A stretch of DNA of 32,000 nucleotides. It comes from an uncultured archaeon. Lineage in GTDB: Archaea > Asgardarchaeota > Thorarchaeia > Thorarchaeales > Thorarchaeaceae. Position 1 is the stretch's first letter. Each line of letters begins with the position of its first letter. The notes under the pieces were generated by a model. That model was given only the letters and a program-made list of their open reading frames with translations, did no database searches and was not told where the DNA came from. The DNA is taken from assembly GCA_964354495.1 (NCBI GenBank), contig CAYHAA010000004.1, positions 167,208 to 199,207 of the forward strand, in the 5' to 3' direction. Below are positions 8,594-18,570 of this stretch, piece by piece. The position numbers and the translations under genes are program-made.

Positions 8594-9418
8594 ATGCAAG
8601 ACCTGATTCAGGACGGAAGTTTTGTCTACATATTTCTTGATGCAAAGCGAAATTGGATTCGCAAAGTCCAGGCTGGAGAGAGCTTCCACTCAAATAAGGG
8701 ACTCATCAAGTACGACGACATCATTGGCAAGCCCTACGGTATCAGGACTGTGAGCCACTCGGGTGTTGTCTTCCAGGTGCACAGACCAAGCCCAACTGAT
8801 ATTCAGATATCTATGGGCCGAAACACGCAGATCATCTACCCAAAAGACGCGGGCACAATCCTTGTTGAGGCAGGTATTGGTGCAGGTTCACGCGTTGTCG
8901 AGGCCGGTACAGGCTCAGCTGCACTCACCGGTATGCTGGCACGAGCTGTGGGTCCGACAGGCCATGTCTACACCTATGAGATTCGAGAAGACATGTTCCA
9001 GGGAGCAAGGAAGAATCTGGAGAAATTCGGACTGACTGAGAATGTCACCCAATACAACCAAGATATTCTTCAGGGCATCAAGGAAGAGGATATCGATGCC
9101 GTCGTGCTGGACTTGGCAACACCATGGGAAGTCGTCGATGAGGCGCATAGAGTGCTTAAACCGAGTCATCACCTAGCAAGCTACAGTCCTACGATTGAAC
9201 AGGTCATGAAGACATGCACTGCCTTGGCTCGTGATGGAAAGTGGGGCATGATTAAGACGCTAGAAATCTTTGAGCGGGAGATCATGGTCAGAGAGAACAA
9301 GACCCGACCAACCACGTGGATGGTCGGACATACAGGGTATATGACATTTGCACGTAGTATGATAGAGCAAGAGGAGTACAAATCTTCAGAGTCAGTTCGA
9401 CAGGAAACAAAGCCTTAA
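8594..9418 (+). CDS. trmI: tRNA (adenine-N1)-methyltransferase (TrmI/GCD14)
   Basis: TQIIYPKD, SAM motif VVEAGTGSAALT, TYEIRED, VVLDLATPW, YSPTIEQV, VGHTGY. Confidence 0.93.
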   Translation: MQDLIQDGSFVYIFLDAKRNWIRKVQAGESFHSNKGLIKYDDIIGKPYGIRTVSHSGVVFQVHRPSPTDIQISMGRNTQIIYPKDAGTILVEAGIGAGSRVVEAGTGSAALTGMLARAVGPTGHVYTYEIREDMFQGARKNLEKFGLTENVTQYNQDILQGIKEEDIDAVVLDLATPWEVVDEAHRVLKPSHHLASYSPTIEQVMKTCTALARDGKWGMIKTLEIFEREIMVRENKTRPTTWMVGHTGYMTFARSMIEQEEYKSSESVRQETKP

Positions 9419-10388: not shown

Positions 10389-12713
10389 TTGGCCAATGCT
10401 CTACCCGGCTCCGAGAAGACAGATAGCACGCCTATCGAAGACGCTACAGTCTACACAAGTACGTTGTTTGAACTGAACCTAAAGGCGCAGGATGCTGTGA
10501 GGGACTTTGCTCTTCATGATATTGATGATGAGGAAGGCCTTGAGAAAGATCGTATTGCCATGCACGATGCATTCACGGAACTATATGATAGTGTAGCAGC
10601 ATTCGGTGAGCAGGTCATGATGGGAGACTTCGACATGGCCTACCTGAGGAACCGGATAGCAGAATCTGAGGGGGAAGTGAAGCAACAGCTCGAGACTGCA
10701 GTCGAGGAGCTCACTGCAGAGAACCAAAAAAATCTGGGAGATGTATGGATGGCAAAGGTCCTGGCATGGCTGCATCAGGCAGCTGCTGCAAGTGGACCAT
10801 TCGTAGAGAACGAACATGATGACAAGCATCGTAGTGCGTCAAAGTACCTTGCGCGAGTGTACACAATGCTTGAGAAACCCTTCTCAGCAATTCCACAGAA
10901 GGTGGACGGAACACAGAAACTTCGGAGGGTCGCCCTTGGCTCTCAGGCGTACAATCTCTTGAAAGAATCATATGAAGAGAACGACGCGGAGTTCACATCA
11001 ATTCTTGGAAATAACAAGAGCGCTGAGGCTGAATTCTATGACGAGTTCCTAAACGAATTGATTGGTCAAGAGAGCACATTTCGACAGGCCTTCAATCCGT
11101 TTGATGAATTAATCTGGAGAGACATTCTCAGCTCCTTCATCTTTGAACAGGCCACCGATCTGTACAATGAGGCCATACCACTCTTCTCAAAGATCCGGGA
11201 ATACAGAGAAAAAGTTTCAACAATGAAGTCGTGGAAGAGCAATACAGCAGGTCTGAGTGAGGTCTATCTTGCAATGACCTATACCGACATTGCAGATGCG
11301 CAAATGAGAGCCGGTAACCTGGAGGATGCAGCCAAGCTCTATTTGGTCGCCTCAGAGGCCTTTGGGAGAGCTGAGAAATGTTTCAGAGAGGTCATCGCAC
11401 TTCATCCAAATGCTGAACAATCCAAATTCGACAAAGAACAAAAGAAGGCGCTGAGCTTATTCTGCAGTGCGGAGGCATTGGTGCAGAGTCTCACCGAGCT
11501 CATCAGATACAACAACAAGACAGCATCGAAGGACGCACTGAAGGAGATCTTCAAGAATCTCAACAAAGCCGAAAAACTGGAAAAGACAAGAGAGCTAGAA
11601 GGTGCAATCAAGGAGGAGCTCAAGACATTCACTTTTGTTGAGGGCCTCCTGAAGAAGAAAGGTGATGACATCAGTGGAATCATCGATCAAATCGACTTTG
11701 CCAAGGACTTGCGAAAGACAGGCCTGATTCAAGATATCAGCAAGGCCCTGGACGAGGCTGGGGGTCTAATGAGTAAGAAACCTGCAGACTCATTGGATTC
11801 CATCAGAGAGGCTCTCAATACTTTGGGAATTCTCCTCAGCCTAGAACCCGAAGATGAGGAAGTCGGCAAGTTGAGGAACAAGACGCTGGCTCTTCTGAAC
11901 AATATCAAGTACATGATACAGTTCCAGCTCAGCTCTCAATTGCAGCATGGTGTCAAGTTTATTCTCTCTCGGATTCTGGAGAATCTCCATGCAGAAGAGG
12001 CGGCGTCCTACTACAAGGTGATTGGGGAAGACCAGAACTGTGAAGAGCTGAAGGACCTTGGCAAACTGGCACTCGCCACAGCATTTGCCTCAGAGGCGCA
12101 GGTCTATTCGCGTCAATCTGACCAATGGGCATTCCGAGCACAGATTGAACGTGTGAATGCCTTTGAGAAGCTAAAAGACGAACTTGCTATTCTTGAAGAA
12201 GAGGATCCCGTTGAAGGCGCCATGGAAACGCATGATGACACTATCAACAAGATCAAGCAGACTGTCGCATCCTTTGAGGCGGCAGCAAATGAACTGAATA
12301 GTGTCAAGGGTGCTGAGATTCGAAACAAGAACAATGTTGAGACTCAGGTGAAACAGCTTCAGGGAGTAGTCATGAAGTTCAGAGGAGACCTCTCGAGACT
12401 AGAGGGAGCAAAGAGCGACTTCATGGCAGAGTACATGTTTCGGAAGGGAGAGAAGTCCAAGGCCAAAATCCACTATACCGAAGCCAATGACCAGCTGAGA
12501 GAAGCAGTAGGTAATTACACTGTTGCGGCACAGGTATTCCAGCAGGTCGGCGATGCTCAGTCAGCACAGACTGTGGATGGGAAGGCAAAGACCACGGACT
12601 TGCTAGCACGCAGCATCTGGGATAATAGACAACGGATGGACCAGGACCAAGAACCCACCCAGAAAGGGAATTCTGAGCTTGCAGCTCTGTACCTTGCGAC
12701 GAGTAGTCAGTAG
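10389..12713 (+). CDS. Large all-alpha (TPR/solenoid-like) hypothetical protein, 774 aa
   Basis: Ala/Glu/Lys/Leu-rich helical pattern with TPR-like segments (e.g. DAQMRAGNLEDAAKLYLVASEAF). AGGAGG RBS 8 nt before TTG. Confidence 0.8.
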   Translation: MANALPGSEKTDSTPIEDATVYTSTLFELNLKAQDAVRDFALHDIDDEEGLEKDRIAMHDAFTELYDSVAAFGEQVMMGDFDMAYLRNRIAESEGEVKQQLETAVEELTAENQKNLGDVWMAKVLAWLHQAAAASGPFVENEHDDKHRSASKYLARVYTMLEKPFSAIPQKVDGTQKLRRVALGSQAYNLLKESYEENDAEFTSILGNNKSAEAEFYDEFLNELIGQESTFRQAFNPFDELIWRDILSSFIFEQATDLYNEAIPLFSKIREYREKVSTMKSWKSNTAGLSEVYLAMTYTDIADAQMRAGNLEDAAKLYLVASEAFGRAEKCFREVIALHPNAEQSKFDKEQKKALSLFCSAEALVQSLTELIRYNNKTASKDALKEIFKNLNKAEKLEKTRELEGAIKEELKTFTFVEGLLKKKGDDISGIIDQIDFAKDLRKTGLIQDISKALDEAGGLMSKKPADSLDSIREALNTLGILLSLEPEDEEVGKLRNKTLALLNNIKYMIQFQLSSQLQHGVKFILSRILENLHAEEAASYYKVIGEDQNCEELKDLGKLALATAFASEAQVYSRQSDQWAFRAQIERVNAFEKLKDELAILEEEDPVEGAMETHDDTINKIKQTVASFEAAANELNSVKGAEIRNKNNVETQVKQLQGVVMKFRGDLSRLEGAKSDFMAEYMFRKGEKSKAKIHYTEANDQLREAVGNYTVAAQVFQQVGDAQSAQTVDGKAKTTDLLARSIWDNRQRMDQDQEPTQKGNSELAALYLATSSQ

Positions 12714-12720
12714 ATGACTG

Positions 12721-14892
12721 CTATTGATAGGCGTAGACGGGTTGTGCTGACTCGATTTTCATTTGGATCGTATGGATACGTCTTGCCCGGAAGGGCATGA
12801 ACTCGACACCGCCTGCATGGTAGAACTTACTGAACCATTCAACATAGTGGAGCCTCAGAGTGTGCATGAACCCTAGCAGACCCTCCAGAAGCCCCACAAT
12901 GAATGTGCCCATGATGGCACCCAGCAATGGGAGGCTGGCAGGCACATGCTCCCCTTCAACAATGAACTCATGAGGAATAATCTCCACCCCAAACAACTCC
13001 AAGGCAGGGAATGTGATTATGACCACCGCAGGCAACATCTCGATGAATACGGAGCTCAGAATGACATGGACCGTGTTCAGGGCGAAGATACGAGCATAGC
13101 TGACAGTGTGACTGATCATGCCAATTGCATGTTCTAGGAAAGCTACCATACCTTCCATTCCAGTCAACATAGAAGCAACAGCCATGATGGCAAAAGGAAT
13201 GATGAAGAATGCTATTGAGAAGACCATGGGAGAGAGCGGCAAGGCAGGATATACTCCATTATTGCCTGTTCCATATCCTATACCTGCAATCGGTATCCAG
13301 AGATACACATTGTCTGTTGTACTGAACCACTTACCAACACTGTTGTAACTCACTCCAAATAGCAGGTTGACAAAGCCAATGTAGAGAATAAGATATGAGG
13401 CAGCAGCGATAGCTTCTTTGTAGCTCTTGTGCTTCAACTTGTTATAGAGATTGAGAACGATTCCCAGAGAGAGATGAATCGCGCCAACCTCGATTGAGAG
13501 CTTCAACATGTGTGAGTCTCTGTAGGGATTCTTCACACCATCAATTGTATGAGCAAACGTCTGCCAGAGTGGTTCGATGACGGTCTCAGCGCCGAAGAAG
13601 CTGCCGAATAAGAACCCGCCAATCGTTGCAGCGATTCCCATCATAATCAGCCCCTCAGCTCCATTCTGGACATATCCCATAATTGCACCCCAGCTCTGAC
13701 CCTTCCTCTTGGCCCGCAAAGCGATCAGTCCAATGAGTATTATTAGAGGACCCTGACCTGCATCAGCAAAGACAAGACCAAAGATGATTGGAAATGTTAG
13801 CCACATGATTTTGGTTGGGTCAAGATCGTGCCGGGAGGGAACACCAAATGACTTCACAACATCCTCGGTGGGTGCCATGAAGGAGGGGTTCGAAAGACAG
13901 GTCGGTGCTTCATGATCTGCGAATTCGGGCTTGTCAAAGGTCACTTCCAGAGCTGCACCCACGCTGGCGCGAAGAATCGGTTCCAACTGGGACTCCCTGC
14001 TCTCTGGAATCCAGCCCCACATCTTGATGGACTGGTCTGTGTACACAATATATCTTTTGACCTCAATCCGTCTTCTCTCAACATCAAGAGCTTCCCATCC
14101 ACCAAGAATTCTGCGGCCCCACTCACGAGCAATAGTCTTCTTTCTCTGAGTCAGGTTCTCAATCTCTTCCTCCAGCTGCTGCACTCGCTGGTCTGCATCT
14201 TCAACAATCTGCTCAGGTCTGCCACTCTCACCCTCCGGAATTGTGAATGCCTCGAACTCCAGAGCAGTGAGGATTCTCTCTACAGCATCTTTGAGCTCGA
14301 CCGGGACTGTAATGACGCAGGCATAGGCACCGCTTTTCAAGGAGTATGTACTGAGAGTGAAGGCGCCTTCGGTCACCTCTTTGAGGCTCCACTCGAGTTC
14401 ATCTTGCCTCCCTGATGGGACCAGTCCTGCAGTCGTGAACGTGAATTCTGTGGTACGAATGAGGCTCGGGTCGATTCCAAGAGGTTTCAGAGAGGTGGCA
14501 ACAGCCTTGATTCCATTCTGACGTTCTGACTCAGTTCGAGCAACAATGAGCCCAGTGTCAAGCTCAAGGGCCTCGCTCTCAACCGCATCGATCACTTCGG
14601 ATGCAATCTTGAGGGAGTTCTGAATTGTCGAGTCATCGATCTCCAGGACTTTGCCTGAACGTCCCTCTTGAGAGAGCTCGAGCGTACTGACAATCTTCTG
14701 CAGTCGATCCAGCAAGCTGAACGCGGTCTCCTCTTCTTGAGTCCTCTTTGCTTCAGCAAGACCGGCTTGGCGTCGTACGTCAATGAACTCGAAAGACCCA
14801 AACTCTTCGAGGGCGAGCAAGACACGGCGCTCTAGGTCTCTATGGGACACCACCTTTGCAACAATCATCTTCTCAGGACTCAGGAGACCCAT
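12721..14892 (-). CDS. atpI: A/V-type ATP synthase subunit I (a)
   Basis: IIFGLVFADAGQG, essential Arg in SHTVSYARIFAL, and HTLRLHYVEWFSKFY..GG..F.PF. Start refined to ATG 14892 (MGLLSPEKM), with GGTGA RBS 5 nt upstream. Confidence 0.95.
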   Translation of the reverse strand: MGLLSPEKMIVAKVVSHRDLERRVLLALEEFGSFEFIDVRRQAGLAEAKRTQEEETAFSLLDRLQKIVSTLELSQEGRSGKVLEIDDSTIQNSLKIASEVIDAVESEALELDTGLIVARTESERQNGIKAVATSLKPLGIDPSLIRTTEFTFTTAGLVPSGRQDELEWSLKEVTEGAFTLSTYSLKSGAYACVITVPVELKDAVERILTALEFEAFTIPEGESGRPEQIVEDADQRVQQLEEEIENLTQRKKTIAREWGRRILGGWEALDVERRRIEVKRYIVYTDQSIKMWGWIPESRESQLEPILRASVGAALEVTFDKPEFADHEAPTCLSNPSFMAPTEDVVKSFGVPSRHDLDPTKIMWLTFPIIFGLVFADAGQGPLIILIGLIALRAKRKGQSWGAIMGYVQNGAEGLIMMGIAATIGGFLFGSFFGAETVIEPLWQTFAHTIDGVKNPYRDSHMLKLSIEVGAIHLSLGIVLNLYNKLKHKSYKEAIAAASYLILYIGFVNLLFGVSYNSVGKWFSTTDNVYLWIPIAGIGYGTGNNGVYPALPLSPMVFSIAFFIIPFAIMAVASMLTGMEGMVAFLEHAIGMISHTVSYARIFALNTVHVILSSVFIEMLPAVVIITFPALELFGVEIIPHEFIVEGEHVPASLPLLGAIMGTFIVGLLEGLLGFMHTLRLHYVEWFSKFYHAGGVEFMPFRARRIHTIQMKIESAQPVYAYQ

Positions 14893-15045
14893 TGTCATCA
14901 CCATAGTCACAGCCGCGCTTACAAAACGCAGGGCTGCGTGAGTGTTGGCTCGCTCAAGCCTCAATAAATACCCTTTGTGACAGGTCAATGTTTATCTAGG
15001 GTTTGGTCAGCAGAACTCACAATACGATGTCTGGAGATTTGACCC

Positions 15046-15369
15046 TTGTGCGCAGCCCATGAAGACATAGACCAAATCAATAAGAGTGAAAAAGCAGCCC
15101 GAGGTAGGATAGAGGAGGCAGAAAAGTGGGCTCGTAGTATACAGGAAGAGGCAGACAAAGAGGCCAATGCCCTTATAGCAAAGGCTGAACATGATGCAAA
15201 GAAGAAGGCCACGAAAACACTCTCTGGGATTGAAGGAAAGAAAGGAGAGATAGAGGCAGCAGTCCTCAGCGACGCCCAGCAGAAGATTGACGTCCTTCGC
15301 AAGAACGCCGAGAAGAAGAAGGCCAAGGCATCAGAAGCGGCACTGAAGATATTGATAGAGGAGGCCTAG
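15046..15369 (+). CDS. atpH: A/V-type ATP synthase peripheral stalk subunit H (G)
   Basis: 107-aa A/E/K-rich coiled coil (EKAARGRIEEAEKWARSIQEEA) directly before subunit E; GGAGA RBS before TTG. Confidence 0.8.
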   Translation: MCAAHEDIDQINKSEKAARGRIEEAEKWARSIQEEADKEANALIAKAEHDAKKKATKTLSGIEGKKGEIEAAVLSDAQQKIDVLRKNAEKKKAKASEAALKILIEEA

Positions 15370-15373
15370 AGAT

Positions 15374-16000
15374 ATGAGCGGAATCTCCAATATCATCGAC
15401 ATCATCAATACAAAGACGACAGAGAAAGAGAATGAGATAATCCAAGAAGCAGAGAGGCATAAACGCCTCAAGCTCGAGGAGGCTGAGAGAAGGGCAAGTG
15501 AGGCTGCTGATGTAATCACGAAGAAAGCAGAACTTCAAGCTAAATCAGAGCTGTCCAGGTATGAAGCAAGTGCCAAACTCAAGTCCAAGTATCAACTTCT
15601 CAACTCGAAAGAAGCATTGATTAAAGATGTGCTCAGCACAACCATACAGAAACTAGACAGCATTGTAGGCAAGGCAGAATACAAGAGAGTGCTCGCAAGA
15701 CTGGCAATTGACGGAGGAATAGCCCTCCACGGAGACGCTCTTGAGTTGGTCCTACCAAAGAATCACGCAGCCTATCTTGACTTGGCAGAGATTGAGACAG
15801 CTGTTTCAAAAGAAACTAAGAAGAAGACTAAGATGTCCATCTCAAAGGAGAACGTTCGATCCAAAGGCGGTCTCATTATCAGGACACCAGACTCAAAACG
15901 CCTTGTGGACAACACATTTGAGGCAAGACTAGAACGCTTGGAAAACAAAGCGAGAGTTGAGATTGCCAGTGTTCTATTCAAGACTGATGATAAGAAGTAG
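15374..16000 (+). CDS. atpE: A/V-type ATP synthase subunit E
   Basis: N-terminal coiled coil plus the C-terminal signature GGLIIRTPDSKRLVDNTFEARLE. Confidence 0.93.
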   Translation: MSGISNIIDIINTKTTEKENEIIQEAERHKRLKLEEAERRASEAADVITKKAELQAKSELSRYEASAKLKSKYQLLNSKEALIKDVLSTTIQKLDSIVGKAEYKRVLARLAIDGGIALHGDALELVLPKNHAAYLDLAEIETAVSKETKKKTKMSISKENVRSKGGLIIRTPDSKRLVDNTFEARLERLENKARVEIASVLFKTDDKK

Positions 16001-16041: not shown

Positions 16042-16443
16042 CTAAGCAAGAACTGTACTAATGAGTCCTATCAGAAGAAAAGCAATGACGAATCCGTAAA
16101 TAGCCACAGCCTCAATGAAGACAACGTAGAGAATACTCTTGCCGAAGGTCTCTGGCTTTTCCGTGATTGCTCCGAGAGCTGCTGCTGAAGCAGTTCCCAT
16201 TCCCAGGCCAGCGCCGACACCGGCTAGACCCAGAGCTAAGCCCGCTCCAATCGCAAGACCCATGATGGCCAGACCGGCATCCGAGATAACTTGAAGCATC
16301 TCAAAGCCTGTGTCAGGGACTACTCGTAATGCGCTCAAAGAAGCTGATCCATCAATTATAGCTAGTAGCAATACTCCTAGAGCTGTCACTATTGCACCCA
16401 AGCTGAACAAGACCAGACTTGCAACGCGATTGTCGATTCTCAT
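16042..16443 (-). CDS. atpK: A/V-type ATP synthase proteolipid subunit K (c), single hairpin with extra N-terminal TM
   Basis: GLAGVGAGLGMG, AITEKPETFGK, ion-binding Glu in FIEAVAIYG. Start refined to ATG 16443 (GGAGGA RBS 7 nt upstream). Confidence 0.93.
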   Translation of the reverse strand: MRIDNRVASLVLFSLGAIVTALGVLLLAIIDGSASLSALRVVPDTGFEMLQVISDAGLAIMGLAIGAGLALGLAGVGAGLGMGTASAAALGAITEKPETFGKSILYVVFIEAVAIYGFVIAFLLIGLISTVLA

Positions 16444-16461
16444 TTGATTTTCCTCCAACTC

Positions 16462-17523
16462 TCACAAGATTGTTATCATTCGTCTTATTGTTTCGGCAGA
16501 CTCGCCTCGTTCAATCCCAACTGCAATGGATCGAATATTACGAATCTCATATTGTTTGAGACTAAAGAATCCAATGATTGTGCCCAGATGAAATGGAAAG
16601 GCAGTCATTAGTCTTTTGATTCCCTGAGCTATGTAGTCCTCAATGGCTAGTTCTACGTTTCCCAAATCATTGGTGTCCTCATAGAGCCTTGCAAGGCGAC
16701 CTCCTAGCTGTGCAAACCGTGTGGAATCGAGTTTCGCAAGCACTTCCCTCCATGTTCGCGCATTCAGAATAGACTCTGTGAGTTCACGTGTCCGGGAAAA
16801 CCTTACAAGCGATAGCTCCAAGGCGCGAGGTTTTAGCTGAAGCAATACAGCTCGAAGCCCGGTCAGAACACTTCTAAGAGTCACTCTGGAATCGATGATG
16901 TCAAGAACTCGGTCTTGCTCATCATCTGAAAATCCCTTTAGTGCCTCAAGCATATTCCGAAGATACCACTCCTCGACGGCAACCTCAAGAGGTGCTGTCG
17001 AGTCGAACTCCTGATAACTTGGAACGCGCGTAAGAAGTGCAACCTTCAGATCCCACTGAGGAAGAAGGTCAATCATTCGCTGAATCGAGCCAGAGTCCAC
17101 GAGCGTCTGGAAGAGGGCTGCCTGTACCGGAGATGTGGGAACTGAGAACCTCAGAATCTCATCCTTTTCAAGGCCAACATGGAGACCCCGAAGGATTGAC
17201 TTGATACTCTCTGCGAAAAACATCTCCAGATAGGCATCCACAAAGTGCTGTACTTTTCCAGTCAGCGATCGCGACAGACTCGAGCTCACATCAGCAAAAT
17301 CCTGAGAGAGAATGAGACCAAGCTCGTCAAGACTTGGGACTGAAGTCTGCGAGTGTTTACTCATGATAGACCCGTAGTAGGTCCCTGACAGTATCTTGAT
17401 GAAATCCGGATAACTGCTAGCTTGGAGTAGACTCTCATATGTGCCAATCGTCAGAAATCGAGACTTCATGCCTCGAATCCGCGCATTGACAAAACCATAC
17501 TCTCTAGCAGCTCCTGACGACAT
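16462..17523 (-). CDS. atpC: A/V-type ATP synthase subunit C (d)
   Basis: YGFVNARIRGMKSRFL at the N-terminus; FFSLKQYEIRNIRSIAVG at the C-terminus. Confidence 0.92.
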   Translation of the reverse strand: MSSGAAREYGFVNARIRGMKSRFLTIGTYESLLQASSYPDFIKILSGTYYGSIMSKHSQTSVPSLDELGLILSQDFADVSSSLSRSLTGKVQHFVDAYLEMFFAESIKSILRGLHVGLEKDEILRFSVPTSPVQAALFQTLVDSGSIQRMIDLLPQWDLKVALLTRVPSYQEFDSTAPLEVAVEEWYLRNMLEALKGFSDDEQDRVLDIIDSRVTLRSVLTGLRAVLLQLKPRALELSLVRFSRTRELTESILNARTWREVLAKLDSTRFAQLGGRLARLYEDTNDLGNVELAIEDYIAQGIKRLMTAFPFHLGTIIGFFSLKQYEIRNIRSIAVGIERGESAETIRRMITIL

Positions 17524-17666: not shown

Positions 17667-18251
17667 ATGACAGAGAGTGGAGTATCAACGCACAGGCCTG
17701 AAGACTATGTCAATCTTGGTAGTGTATTCAGGAACTCTGCAACAATCACCTTCGTTGTTCAGATAATAGCAGTCATAATAATGGTAGGTGCACTAGCAGC
17801 CTATGTCATAGGAGATGTCTACTTCGCCCTATCAGAAGACTTGCAGATACTAGCACTCCTTTTTGGAAGCATAATAGCACTGGTTGTGTTTTTGGCTGCA
17901 ATAAGTGCATTCGTCAGATTCTCAAGGAGGATTGGCGACGCAGTGGTCGGTCCAGGAATTGAAGAGGTTCGAATGGACACGCCAAGAGTGAAAGCGGTGG
18001 TCATCCTATATGGACTCCTTGTTGCGCTGATGGGCATTACAGGATTCTATGCGTGGTATCTGATTGACACAAACTACCTCGTGGCCTGGGCTGCATCTTA
18101 CCACTCCATCTCGCTCAGAGTGTTCGGTCTCGCACTGGGCGCGTTCTTCATTGCGCTGCTCATTCAGATCATCGTTGCCGGAGTGGGAAGAAGTGCGACA
18201 AAGGTAATCATCGAGGTCCTTGATGCAGACGACTCCGAGTTCACTGACTAG
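17667..18251 (+). CDS. Hypothetical 4-TM membrane protein
   Basis: Four hydrophobic segments forming two hairpins; acidic C-terminal tail. Confidence 0.8.
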   Translation: MTESGVSTHRPEDYVNLGSVFRNSATITFVVQIIAVIIMVGALAAYVIGDVYFALSEDLQILALLFGSIIALVVFLAAISAFVRFSRRIGDAVVGPGIEEVRMDTPRVKAVVILYGLLVALMGITGFYAWYLIDTNYLVAWAASYHSISLRVFGLALGAFFIALLIQIIVAGVGRSATKVIIEVLDADDSEFTD

Positions 18252-18252
18252 T

Positions 18253-18570
18253 TCACTCGGAAGACTCCTCATCAATATCGAAGACAACATCCTCAAGTAT
18301 CTCTTCCATTGGAGGCATGTACTTAGGTCGTTCAGTCTGTTTCTGGTCGATGCGCTCAAGGTACTCAATTGTCTTAAAGACACTATACACTCCGAAGGCA
18401 AATCCAAAGAGAGATCCCAGAATAGCGCCCCATGTTGCCCCTGAGGGGCCTGCAATCGATTGCCCCAGAATCTGACCGACCAATAGAAGAGCGACCACAG
18501 AGCATGGAAGCTCTGAGGCAACTGCAATCCAAGGACCCACTCCTCCAAAGCCGCTGGGAGACTCGTTCAT
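18253..18570 (-). CDS. AtpZ/AtpI (ATPase gene-1)-like 2-TM protein
   Basis: A..EL...V....L.G...G then W GAILGSLFGFAFGVYSVFK matches the Gly-patterned hairpin of the ATPase gene-1 family; adjacent to the ATPase cluster. Confidence 0.6.
   Translation of the reverse strand: MNESPSGFGGVGPWIAVASELPCSVVALLLVGQILGQSIAGPSGATWGAILGSLFGFAFGVYSVFKTIEYLERIDQKQTERPKYMPPMEEILEDVVFDIDEESSE

Follow-up and report, generated by a model that had tools for sequence, protein, structure and literature searches.

Assembly helpers are known for the F-type rotary ATPases (UncI/AtpI and AtpZ/AtpQ/AtpR) and for the eukaryotic V-ATPase (Vma21, Vma12 and Vma22); we know of none that has been described for the archaeal A-type enzymes. 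In this study, we analyzed a 32,000-nucleotide stretch of DNA from an uncultured archaeon of the Asgard family Thorarchaeaceae (contig CAYHAA010000004.1; hereafter the window), in which two genes for small membrane proteins, designated P1 and P2, lie beyond atpC of an A/V-type ATPase. In bacteria, UncI/AtpI assists assembly of the c-ring, and AtpR has been proposed to do likewise (PMC2881411, PMC4154653). Bacterial operons also pair an AtpI of four transmembrane (TM) helices with a two-TM AtpZ (PMC4453477). The same article summarizes the work of Hicks et al. (2003), according to which atpZ enhances Mg2+ acquisition in Bacillus pseudofirmus OF4, a phenotype tied to alkaline conditions. The eukaryotic Vma21 folds as a hairpin whose ends face the cytosol, and it binds around the c-ring while V0 is still immature (PMC13142848). 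Our analyses indicate that P2 is probably a divergent member of the AtpZ/AtpQ family, which in Asgard archaea would have joined the A/V-ATPase membrane sector as an accessory gene and likely encodes an assembly or stability factor.

P2 (18253..18570, minus strand) encodes a 105-residue, two-TM glycine-zipper hairpin. A Pfam scan aligned its residues 16-66 with positions 2-53 of the 54 in PF09527 (ATPase_gene1; E 1.7e-4, 22 bits; gathering cut-off 26.6 bits). When 400 Asgard genomes were searched with P2, orthologues were recovered from Jordarchaeales (family f15 of our survey), Freyarchaeum (f16) and family f32 at E-values of 1e-9 to 1e-13. Four of the five orthologues tested scored above the PF09527 cut-off (27.0, 31.0, 32.8 and 33.3 bits), and the remaining one, a second Freyarchaeum protein, reached 26.0 bits. 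The nearest clusters in a protein-language-model search were exclusively bacterial PF09527 clusters. Further, an alignment of 20 Asgard orthologues and its profile (A1) revealed four invariant glycines, G32, G36, G52 and G56, which form one GxxxG per helix. Taken together, these results support membership of P2 in the AtpZ/AtpQ family by transitive sequence homology, and the ATPase gene-1 glycine pattern that a first-pass annotation had read in the 105-residue protein is borne out by the Pfam alignment and the invariant glycines. Automatic annotation points the same way, as the Jordarchaeales orthologue is named "AtpZ/AtpI family protein" by NCBI (PGAP) and some thorarchaeal P2 proteins carry the JGI name "F0F1-type ATP synthase assembly protein I". 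P2 has 137 database relatives, the closest of which, like those of P1, carry the label Candidatus Thorarchaeota, and a protein-database search with its profile returned only thorarchaeal proteins among the matches listed.

The AlphaFold2 model of P2 shows helices 8-40 and 42-80 as a hairpin followed by a short tail helix (predicted local distance difference test, pLDDT, 85.7). Basic residues flank both hairpin ends in the orthologues, and by the positive-inside rule both ends would be cytoplasmic. Although itself just short of the Pfam cut-off that most of its tested orthologues pass, P2 resembles AtpZ of B. pseudofirmus OF4 and AtpQ ("gene 1" of N-ATPase operons) in Pfam family, size class and its two-TM glycine-rich hairpin, and also in being encoded at a rotary-ATPase cluster, often as the first gene of the unit. 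It differs from them in its partner, which in Asgard archaea is an A/V-type enzyme (subunits C/d, K/c and I/a), and in its tail. The thorarchaeal proteins possess a long acidic C-terminal tail of their own, Y-M-P-P-x-E-E-I-x-E-D-x-x-F, with YMPPxEEIxED conserved, whereas those of Jordarchaeales and Freyarchaeum end in a different long charged tail. Searches of solved structures with the P2 profile yielded weak or noise-level matches, the best being MscL (E 0.0016), with no ATPase protein and no Vma21 among them, and fold searches gave only noise-level or generic helical and glycine-zipper matches. A second weak PF09527 match in the source genome (contig C15) was rejected as spurious, being a YdjM-family protein. 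Separately, family f32 carries two tandem P2-like genes beside a K-I-C cluster (L050:9901-10649, plus strand), and in both products the hairpin is fused to a C-terminal zinc-ribbon (CPxC...CPxC; UPF0547, E 7e-8).

Forty loci around P2-profile matches were fetched and the ATPase genes were mapped on each. In 13 of the 15 matched families outside the Thorarchaeales, a P2-like gene was located next to atpC, atpK or atpI or at most a few kb from one of them, and atpC was the most frequent immediate neighbor in these other Asgard lineages. The arrangements vary. In Freyarchaeum, the P2-like gene, atpC and atpK follow one another in that order on one strand. The gene directly precedes atpC, in the same orientation, in family f14, in the Hodarchaeota-labelled family f28 (within about 25 nt), in one Atabeyarchaeum genome (f4) and in one Jordarchaeales genome, and it diverges from atpC in one Jordarchaeales genome. 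In Baldrarchaeia (f5) and family f29 it is placed inside the operon, between atpI and the atpC-atpK pair, some 17 nt from atpC. In the Heimdallarchaeota-labelled family f11 and in Borrarchaeum (f30) it converges on atpK after an I-C-K series. Two P2-like copies flank the K genes and atpC in f6, and in f33 (L069:5689-14470) the gene sits between two side-by-side membrane-sector clusters ordered I-C-K or I-K-C. In two Atabeyarchaeum genomes the distance to atpC, which lies downstream, is 3.5-4.4 kb. Within the Thorarchaeaceae (f1), a block of atpI, H-E, K, C, P1, P2, a LarA-like gene and an FGGY kinase gene is kept in 10 of 11 sampled loci, with P1 alone separating P2 from the ATPase genes in 10 of the 11.

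Since the gene order changes while the proximity is kept, selection rather than inherited synteny would explain the linkage. Six families (f4, f6, f11, f28, f29 and f30) contributed no sequence to A1, and the single match in each genome (in f6, the better of two) nevertheless lies beside ATPase membrane genes, thus giving independent support to both homology and a functional link. The partner genes encode membrane parts of the rotor and stator, not the catalytic A and B subunits, which in the source genome are encoded on another contig. That genome (assembly of 3.3 Mb, 97.7% complete) has one A and one B subunit gene, its sole PF00006 genes. This indicates one rotary ATPase, of the A/V type; an F- or N-type enzyme with which P2 might work is absent. 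The first-pass reading of the two-TM protein as AtpZ-like therefore stands on both counts, family membership by transitive homology and conserved linkage to atpC, atpK and atpI across many Asgard lineages in varying gene orders.

Based on the linkage to atpC (d), atpK (c) and atpI (a) rather than to head genes, and on invariant residues that are glycines suited to packing, we predict that P2 acts in assembly or stability. The occurrence of its family in F- and N-type operons, together with the precedents of UncI/AtpI (unrelated to P2 but comparably located), AtpR and Vma21, would by analogy be consistent with such a role. During biogenesis, the glycine faces of P2 may pack onto glycine-rich K proteolipid helices or at the interface of the K ring with C and I. 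P2 could thereby help the rotor-plus-d module to form, to stay stable or to join subunit I, and it would not be a catalytic part. Family f14 is informative in this respect. One of its K genes is a giant single open reading frame (ORF) of 1147 residues with 15 ATP-synt_C hairpins (L052:1475-4918, plus strand), and a second has 643 residues and eight hairpins (L053:13224-15155, minus strand), so that a whole or half rotor ring would be made as one chain, reminiscent of the multi-hairpin K of Methanopyrus kandleri. Since the P2-like gene still lies directly upstream of atpC in this family despite the 15-hairpin K, a role limited to oligomerization of c subunits is unlikely. A function in ring-to-partner assembly or stabilization would be more likely than one in setting c-subunit stoichiometry.

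P1 (17667..18251, plus strand) encodes a 194-residue, four-TM protein of a small Asgard-only family. As the first-pass annotation had it, P1 and P2 end 1 nt apart beyond atpC: the two ORFs converge, with stop codons at 18249-18251 and 18253-18255 and a single base between them. The P1 start is 143 bp from that of atpC, and these two genes diverge. The AlphaFold2 model of P1 contains four long helices (pLDDT 81.6). Within the Thorarchaeales the mean column identity is 62%, with a conserved Q/E in helix 1 and a conserved Q in helix 4. There are 258 database relatives, and an exhaustive profile search of 1.84 billion representative proteins returned only 23 clusters (50% identity). Genome searches placed the family in 80 of 85 thorarchaeal genomes, in f2, in all three Atabeyarchaeum genomes, in 18 of 19 genomes of f14 and in one genome of f22. 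Most thorarchaeal genomes have two copies, and in the source genome the paralogue (C19:23649-24200) lies among aminotransferase, HAD hydrolase and hypothetical genes.

UncI, like P1, has four TM helices, and the first-pass annotation had taken P1 as AtpI/UncI-like. UncI/AtpI (PF03899) and AtpR (PF12966) are likewise small, hydrophobic, non-catalytic products of ATPase operons, but neither P1 nor P2 matches either family, and the conserved membrane-embedded arginine pair of AtpR is not present here. P1 and 12 relatives gave no match to PF03899 (ATP-synt_I) even at E ≤ 10. At that threshold the family produced only noise against Pfam, including Vma12 (PF11712) at E 3.2 in 2 of 13 members, and the proposed comparison with Vma12/TMEM199 is not supported. 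Fold searches with P1 found no match, the weak V-ATPase c rows being not significant, and comparison of the alignments detected no significant homology between P1 and P2. Relatives in Atabeyarchaeum and on two metagenome contigs have unrelated neighbors and no adjacent P2-like gene, and the P1-like genes of Atabeyarchaeia and f14 are far from ATPase genes. Linkage of P1 to the ATPase was thus found nowhere outside the Thorarchaeaceae among these relatives, the metagenome contigs and the paralogue. Only in one order, Thorarchaeales, does P1 adjoin P2 and atpC, and this placement cannot be distinguished from inherited gene order and gives no evidence of an ATPase function. We therefore regard P1 as a separate Asgard-specific membrane protein with no demonstrable ATPase tie, and the AtpI/UncI-like assignment is not supported. 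The pseudo-duplication that had been seen in its two hairpins also failed to hold, as the halves compared at E 0.64 by BLASTP and at E 0.15 by hhalign (probability 0.4%, 14 columns). The two halves of the model are of like build, each with a short strand and two helices, which might reflect an ancient duplication. Both proteins were further observed to have an acidic C-terminus that includes a conserved Phe, E-E-I-x-E-D-x-x-F-D in P2 (18253-18330) and L-D-x-D-D-S-E-F in P1 (18190-18251).

The A1 profile matched proteins in 139 of the 400 Asgard genomes. Matches were found in 78 of 85 Thorarchaeaceae genomes, 17 of 19 in f14, 4 of 5 in Jordarchaeales, 5 of 6 in Freyarchaeum, 3 of 4 in f6, 4 of 5 in Borrarchaeum and 6 of 22 in the Heimdallarchaeota-labelled f11. 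Every genome sampled had a match in Atabeyarchaeum (3/3), f9 (3/3), the Hodarchaeota-labelled f28 (3/3) and f29 (4/4). Outside the Asgardarchaeota, we sampled 80 loci centered on relatives of the A subunit, of which 38 contained I, K and C in the classical I-K-E-C-F-A order. These came from Methanobacteriota, Thermococcus, Woesearchaeota, Methanosarcinales, one Hodarchaeaceae genome, Clostridia and other bacteria, and none of the 38 had an A1 match at E ≤ 0.1. The sample is skewed to Methanobacteriota and Clostridia and does not establish absence elsewhere in Archaea. Within the limits of this bias, the P2-ATPase link appears to belong specifically to the Asgard-type arrangement. In the Hodarchaeaceae genome, a classical euryarchaeal-type I-K-E-C operon adjoins atpA (L141:4240-8372); its K is a four-TM double hairpin, and a P2-like gene is absent. 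Two kinds of A/V-ATPase cluster may thus be in circulation among Hodarchaeota lineages.

Several observations weigh against our assignment of P2 and against the role predicted for it. P2 itself falls below the PF09527 cut-off, and the Hodarchaeota-labelled, Heimdallarchaeota-labelled and f29 proteins reach that family through A1 only, being missed by the Pfam model alone. Glycine-zipper hairpins are low-information sequences, and weak PF09527 matches were present in 12 of 14 control genomes. The profile-survey E-values for f5, f14, f15, f16 and f32 are partly circular, as these families have members in A1; for them the fair figure is the single-sequence search with P2. In addition, the one tested function in the family, that of Bacillus AtpZ, is Mg2+ acquisition and not assembly (PMC4453477). 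Linkage also fails in places. Two Thorarchaeales genomes (G320 and G311) have the P1-P2 pair away from ATPase genes, and in G320, as in the single f2 genome, the whole P1-P2-LarA-FGGY segment stands apart from them. For f9, two genomes were sampled, and neither fetched locus showed an ATPase gene next to the P2-like gene. For f31, the fetched stretch spans 10.5 kb with the single match 0.3 kb from its start, and no ATPase gene was found in it. Lastly, f22, the largest family sampled, has the ATPase but nearly no detectable P2-like gene (1 of 135 genomes, a single weak match at E 6.6e-4 whose genomic context was not checked), and there was no match in f8 (0/31), f10 (0/12), f13 (0/12) or f21 (0/14). 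Besides the Thorarchaeaceae, f22 and f8 are the two largest families sampled. Five genomes from f8, f13 and f22 had no small two-TM ORF with a profile match at their ATPase loci, and the ORFs of this kind were low-complexity, spurious-looking and away from the ATPase genes. With so many ATPase-bearing families lacking a detectable copy, some Asgard enzymes would be able to do without the P2-like gene.

Structural subunits are usually encoded inside the operon, close to the genes of their partners, and the position of the P2-like gene between atpI and atpC in f29 and Baldrarchaeia, or some 25 nt from atpC in the Hodarchaeota-labelled family, raises the thought that P2 is a permanent small subunit of Ao rather than a transient factor. 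It would then resemble in build subunits e and f of V0, both of them small proteins with two TM helices that bind subunit a, and in some lineages the Asgard gene does directly follow atpI. Retention of the gene in f14, with its one-polypeptide K ring, would fit as well, and V-ATPase subunit e appears among the top 50 Foldseek rows for P2, in one row at noise level (E 2.7). However, PF05493 (subunit e) matched nothing at the P2 locus in five Asgard genomes, many ATPase-bearing Asgard lineages lack a detectable copy, and in the Thorarchaeaceae, Heimdallarchaeota-labelled and Borrarchaeum genomes the gene is a separate, often convergent transcription unit. Nor are PF09527 proteins known as parts of purified bacterial F-type enzymes. 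We consider a permanent subunit unlikely. A second proposal, made for B. pseudofirmus AtpZ, is that of a small divalent-cation (Mg2+/Ca2+) uptake channel supplying Mg2+ for MgATP. By transitive homology P2 shares the Pfam family, for which Pfam itself gives the name of a putative Ca2+/Mg2+ transporter, and the Bacillus effect on Mg2+ acquisition described in PMC4453477 speaks for this proposal. That effect is, however, tied to alkaline conditions in the same article. No conserved acidic or polar pore residues were seen in A1, in which the four glycines are the invariant positions, and the repeated linkage is to rotor and stator membrane genes instead of the catalytic A and B genes. A channel function for P2 is accordingly rated as distinctly improbable.

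The first-pass annotation had favored a broader idea, in which AtpI/UncI-like P1 and AtpZ-like P2 form a dedicated two-part chaperone system for the c-ring or Ao. Nearly all Thorarchaeaceae and the single f2 genome keep the convergent pair, also in cases in which the ATPase genes lie elsewhere, both proteins have the acidic, Phe-containing tails, and the bacterial pairing of a four-TM with a two-TM protein offers a model (PMC4453477). Against it stand the results for P1 given above: no PF03899 or other family similarity and no fold match, a second paralogue in an unrelated context in most thorarchaeal genomes, and P1-like genes that in Atabeyarchaeia and f14 lie far from their P2-like counterparts and off the ATPase genes. 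As the pairing occurs in one order only, inherited gene order explains it, and a two-part system seems very unlikely. The opposite extreme, that P2 is an unrelated generic glycine-zipper protein whose Pfam match and position by atpC are coincidental, could draw on the sub-threshold score of P2, on shape searches that yield glycine-zipper clusters only, and on the A1 members themselves, which are matched by PF13488, PF05433 and PF13441 in 14, 13 and 11 of 20 cases and by PF09527 in 11 of 20. We find it scarcely credible, since at least eight families outside the profile have their sole match (in f6, the best of two) within a few kb of atpC, atpK or atpI, each such placement having by rough estimate a chance of about 1 in 1000, and since several orthologues exceed the PF09527 cut-off. 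Taken together, these considerations lead us to retain P2 as a probable AtpZ/AtpQ-type accessory factor of the A/V-ATPase membrane sector.

The likeness of P2 to Vma21 deserves separate comment. Both are two-helix hairpins of about 80-100 residues with both ends cytosolic (as predicted for P2), and Vma21 is tied to the proteolipid ring and subunit d, while in Asgard genomes the P2-like gene is found together with atpC (d) and atpK (c). In contrast, no endoplasmic reticulum-retrieval signal applies to P2, and there is no detectable sequence relation. In thorarchaeal, Hodarchaeota-labelled, Heimdallarchaeota-labelled, Freyarchaeum and f29 genomes, PF09446 (VMA21) matched nothing at the P2 locus and gave noise elsewhere (best E 0.07), and Vma21 was absent from the top 50 Foldseek rows for P2. 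The earlier description of the locus as Vma21-analogous thus survives for size and topology but not for sequence or fold, and the likeness, which is limited to size, topology and genomic company, is one of analogy only. We think it improbable that Vma21 truly descends from the Asgard AtpZ-like hairpin. If it did, a chaperone for the proteolipid ring and subunit d would already have been present in the archaeal ancestor of eukaryotes, and bacterial AtpZ/AtpQ and Vma21 would constitute one ancient family of rotor-assembly hairpins. The lineages concerned include the Hodarchaeota-labelled family, with its P2-like gene directly upstream of atpC, and the Heimdallarchaeota-labelled one, in which the gene converges on atpK.

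The remaining ATPase genes of the window comprise atpC (subunit C, equivalent to eukaryotic V0 d; 16462..17523, minus strand; vATP-synt_AC39, PF01992, E 6e-48), atpK (the proteolipid c subunit; 16042..16458, minus strand), which has one canonical hairpin with the ion-binding Glu, atpE (stator subunit E; 15374..16000, plus strand), a probable atpH (G-like stator subunit; 15046..15369, plus strand; V-ATPase_G_2, E 0.0076 over 92 of 104 positions) and atpI (subunit I, equivalent to V0 a; 12721..14988, minus strand; V_ATPase_I, E 5e-41). A 113-residue ORF (14985..15326, minus strand) overlaps atpH and has a weak match to the Ac45/VOA1 TM segment (E 0.03). It is probably a shadow ORF; tblastn found no match for it in related Asgard loci, in searches that did not include the plus-strand atpH ORF. 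In the thorarchaeal K (138 residues), the canonical hairpin is preceded by a linker and, at the N terminus, by an additional conserved hydrophobic helix. This helix, also present in one Heimdallarchaeota-labelled genome, could be signal-like or a third TM segment.

While the membrane and stator genes share the window, the head genes F, A and B are found on another contig (C20; L081:6345-11139). There, atpF-atpA is followed by a uracil-DNA glycosylase gene that overlaps the end of atpA and by a 174-residue ORF, and then by atpB, directly after which no atpD was recognized. A conserved gene for a 774-residue TPR-like solenoid protein (10389-12713) flanks atpI in the thorarchaeal block, and it is pure speculation that this protein might read the acidic tails of P1 and P2. 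The tRNA methyltransferase gene trmI (GCD14 family; 8594-9418, plus strand) lies a few kb from atpI in Thorarchaeaceae, Atabeyarchaeum, f6 and f29. In f9, trmI adjoins the P2-like gene, the fetched locus being the one in which no ATPase gene was found.

Full-text literature searches retrieved no paper that ties AtpZ/AtpQ-type proteins to A/V-type ATPases and no description of Vma21-like factors in archaea. The family resemblance has already been caught by automatic annotation in the JGI and PGAP names; what appears to be new is the attachment to an A/V-ATPase. P2 is thus a concrete and cheaply testable candidate for an ATPase assembly factor, and its gene could aid heterologous production of Asgard ATPases for structural work. 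The finding also raises the question of whether hairpin chaperones of the rotor are older than the split between F- and A/V-type enzymes or were recruited by transfer from bacteria, and whether Vma21 is a descendant or a convergent replacement.

In conclusion, an AtpZ/AtpQ-family gene appears to stand beside the genes for the c-ring, d and a subunits in most Asgard lineages, including groups placed closest to eukaryotes. If so, accessory proteins of a known family would have become associated with another class of rotary ATPase, and this in the archaea nearest to eukaryotes.

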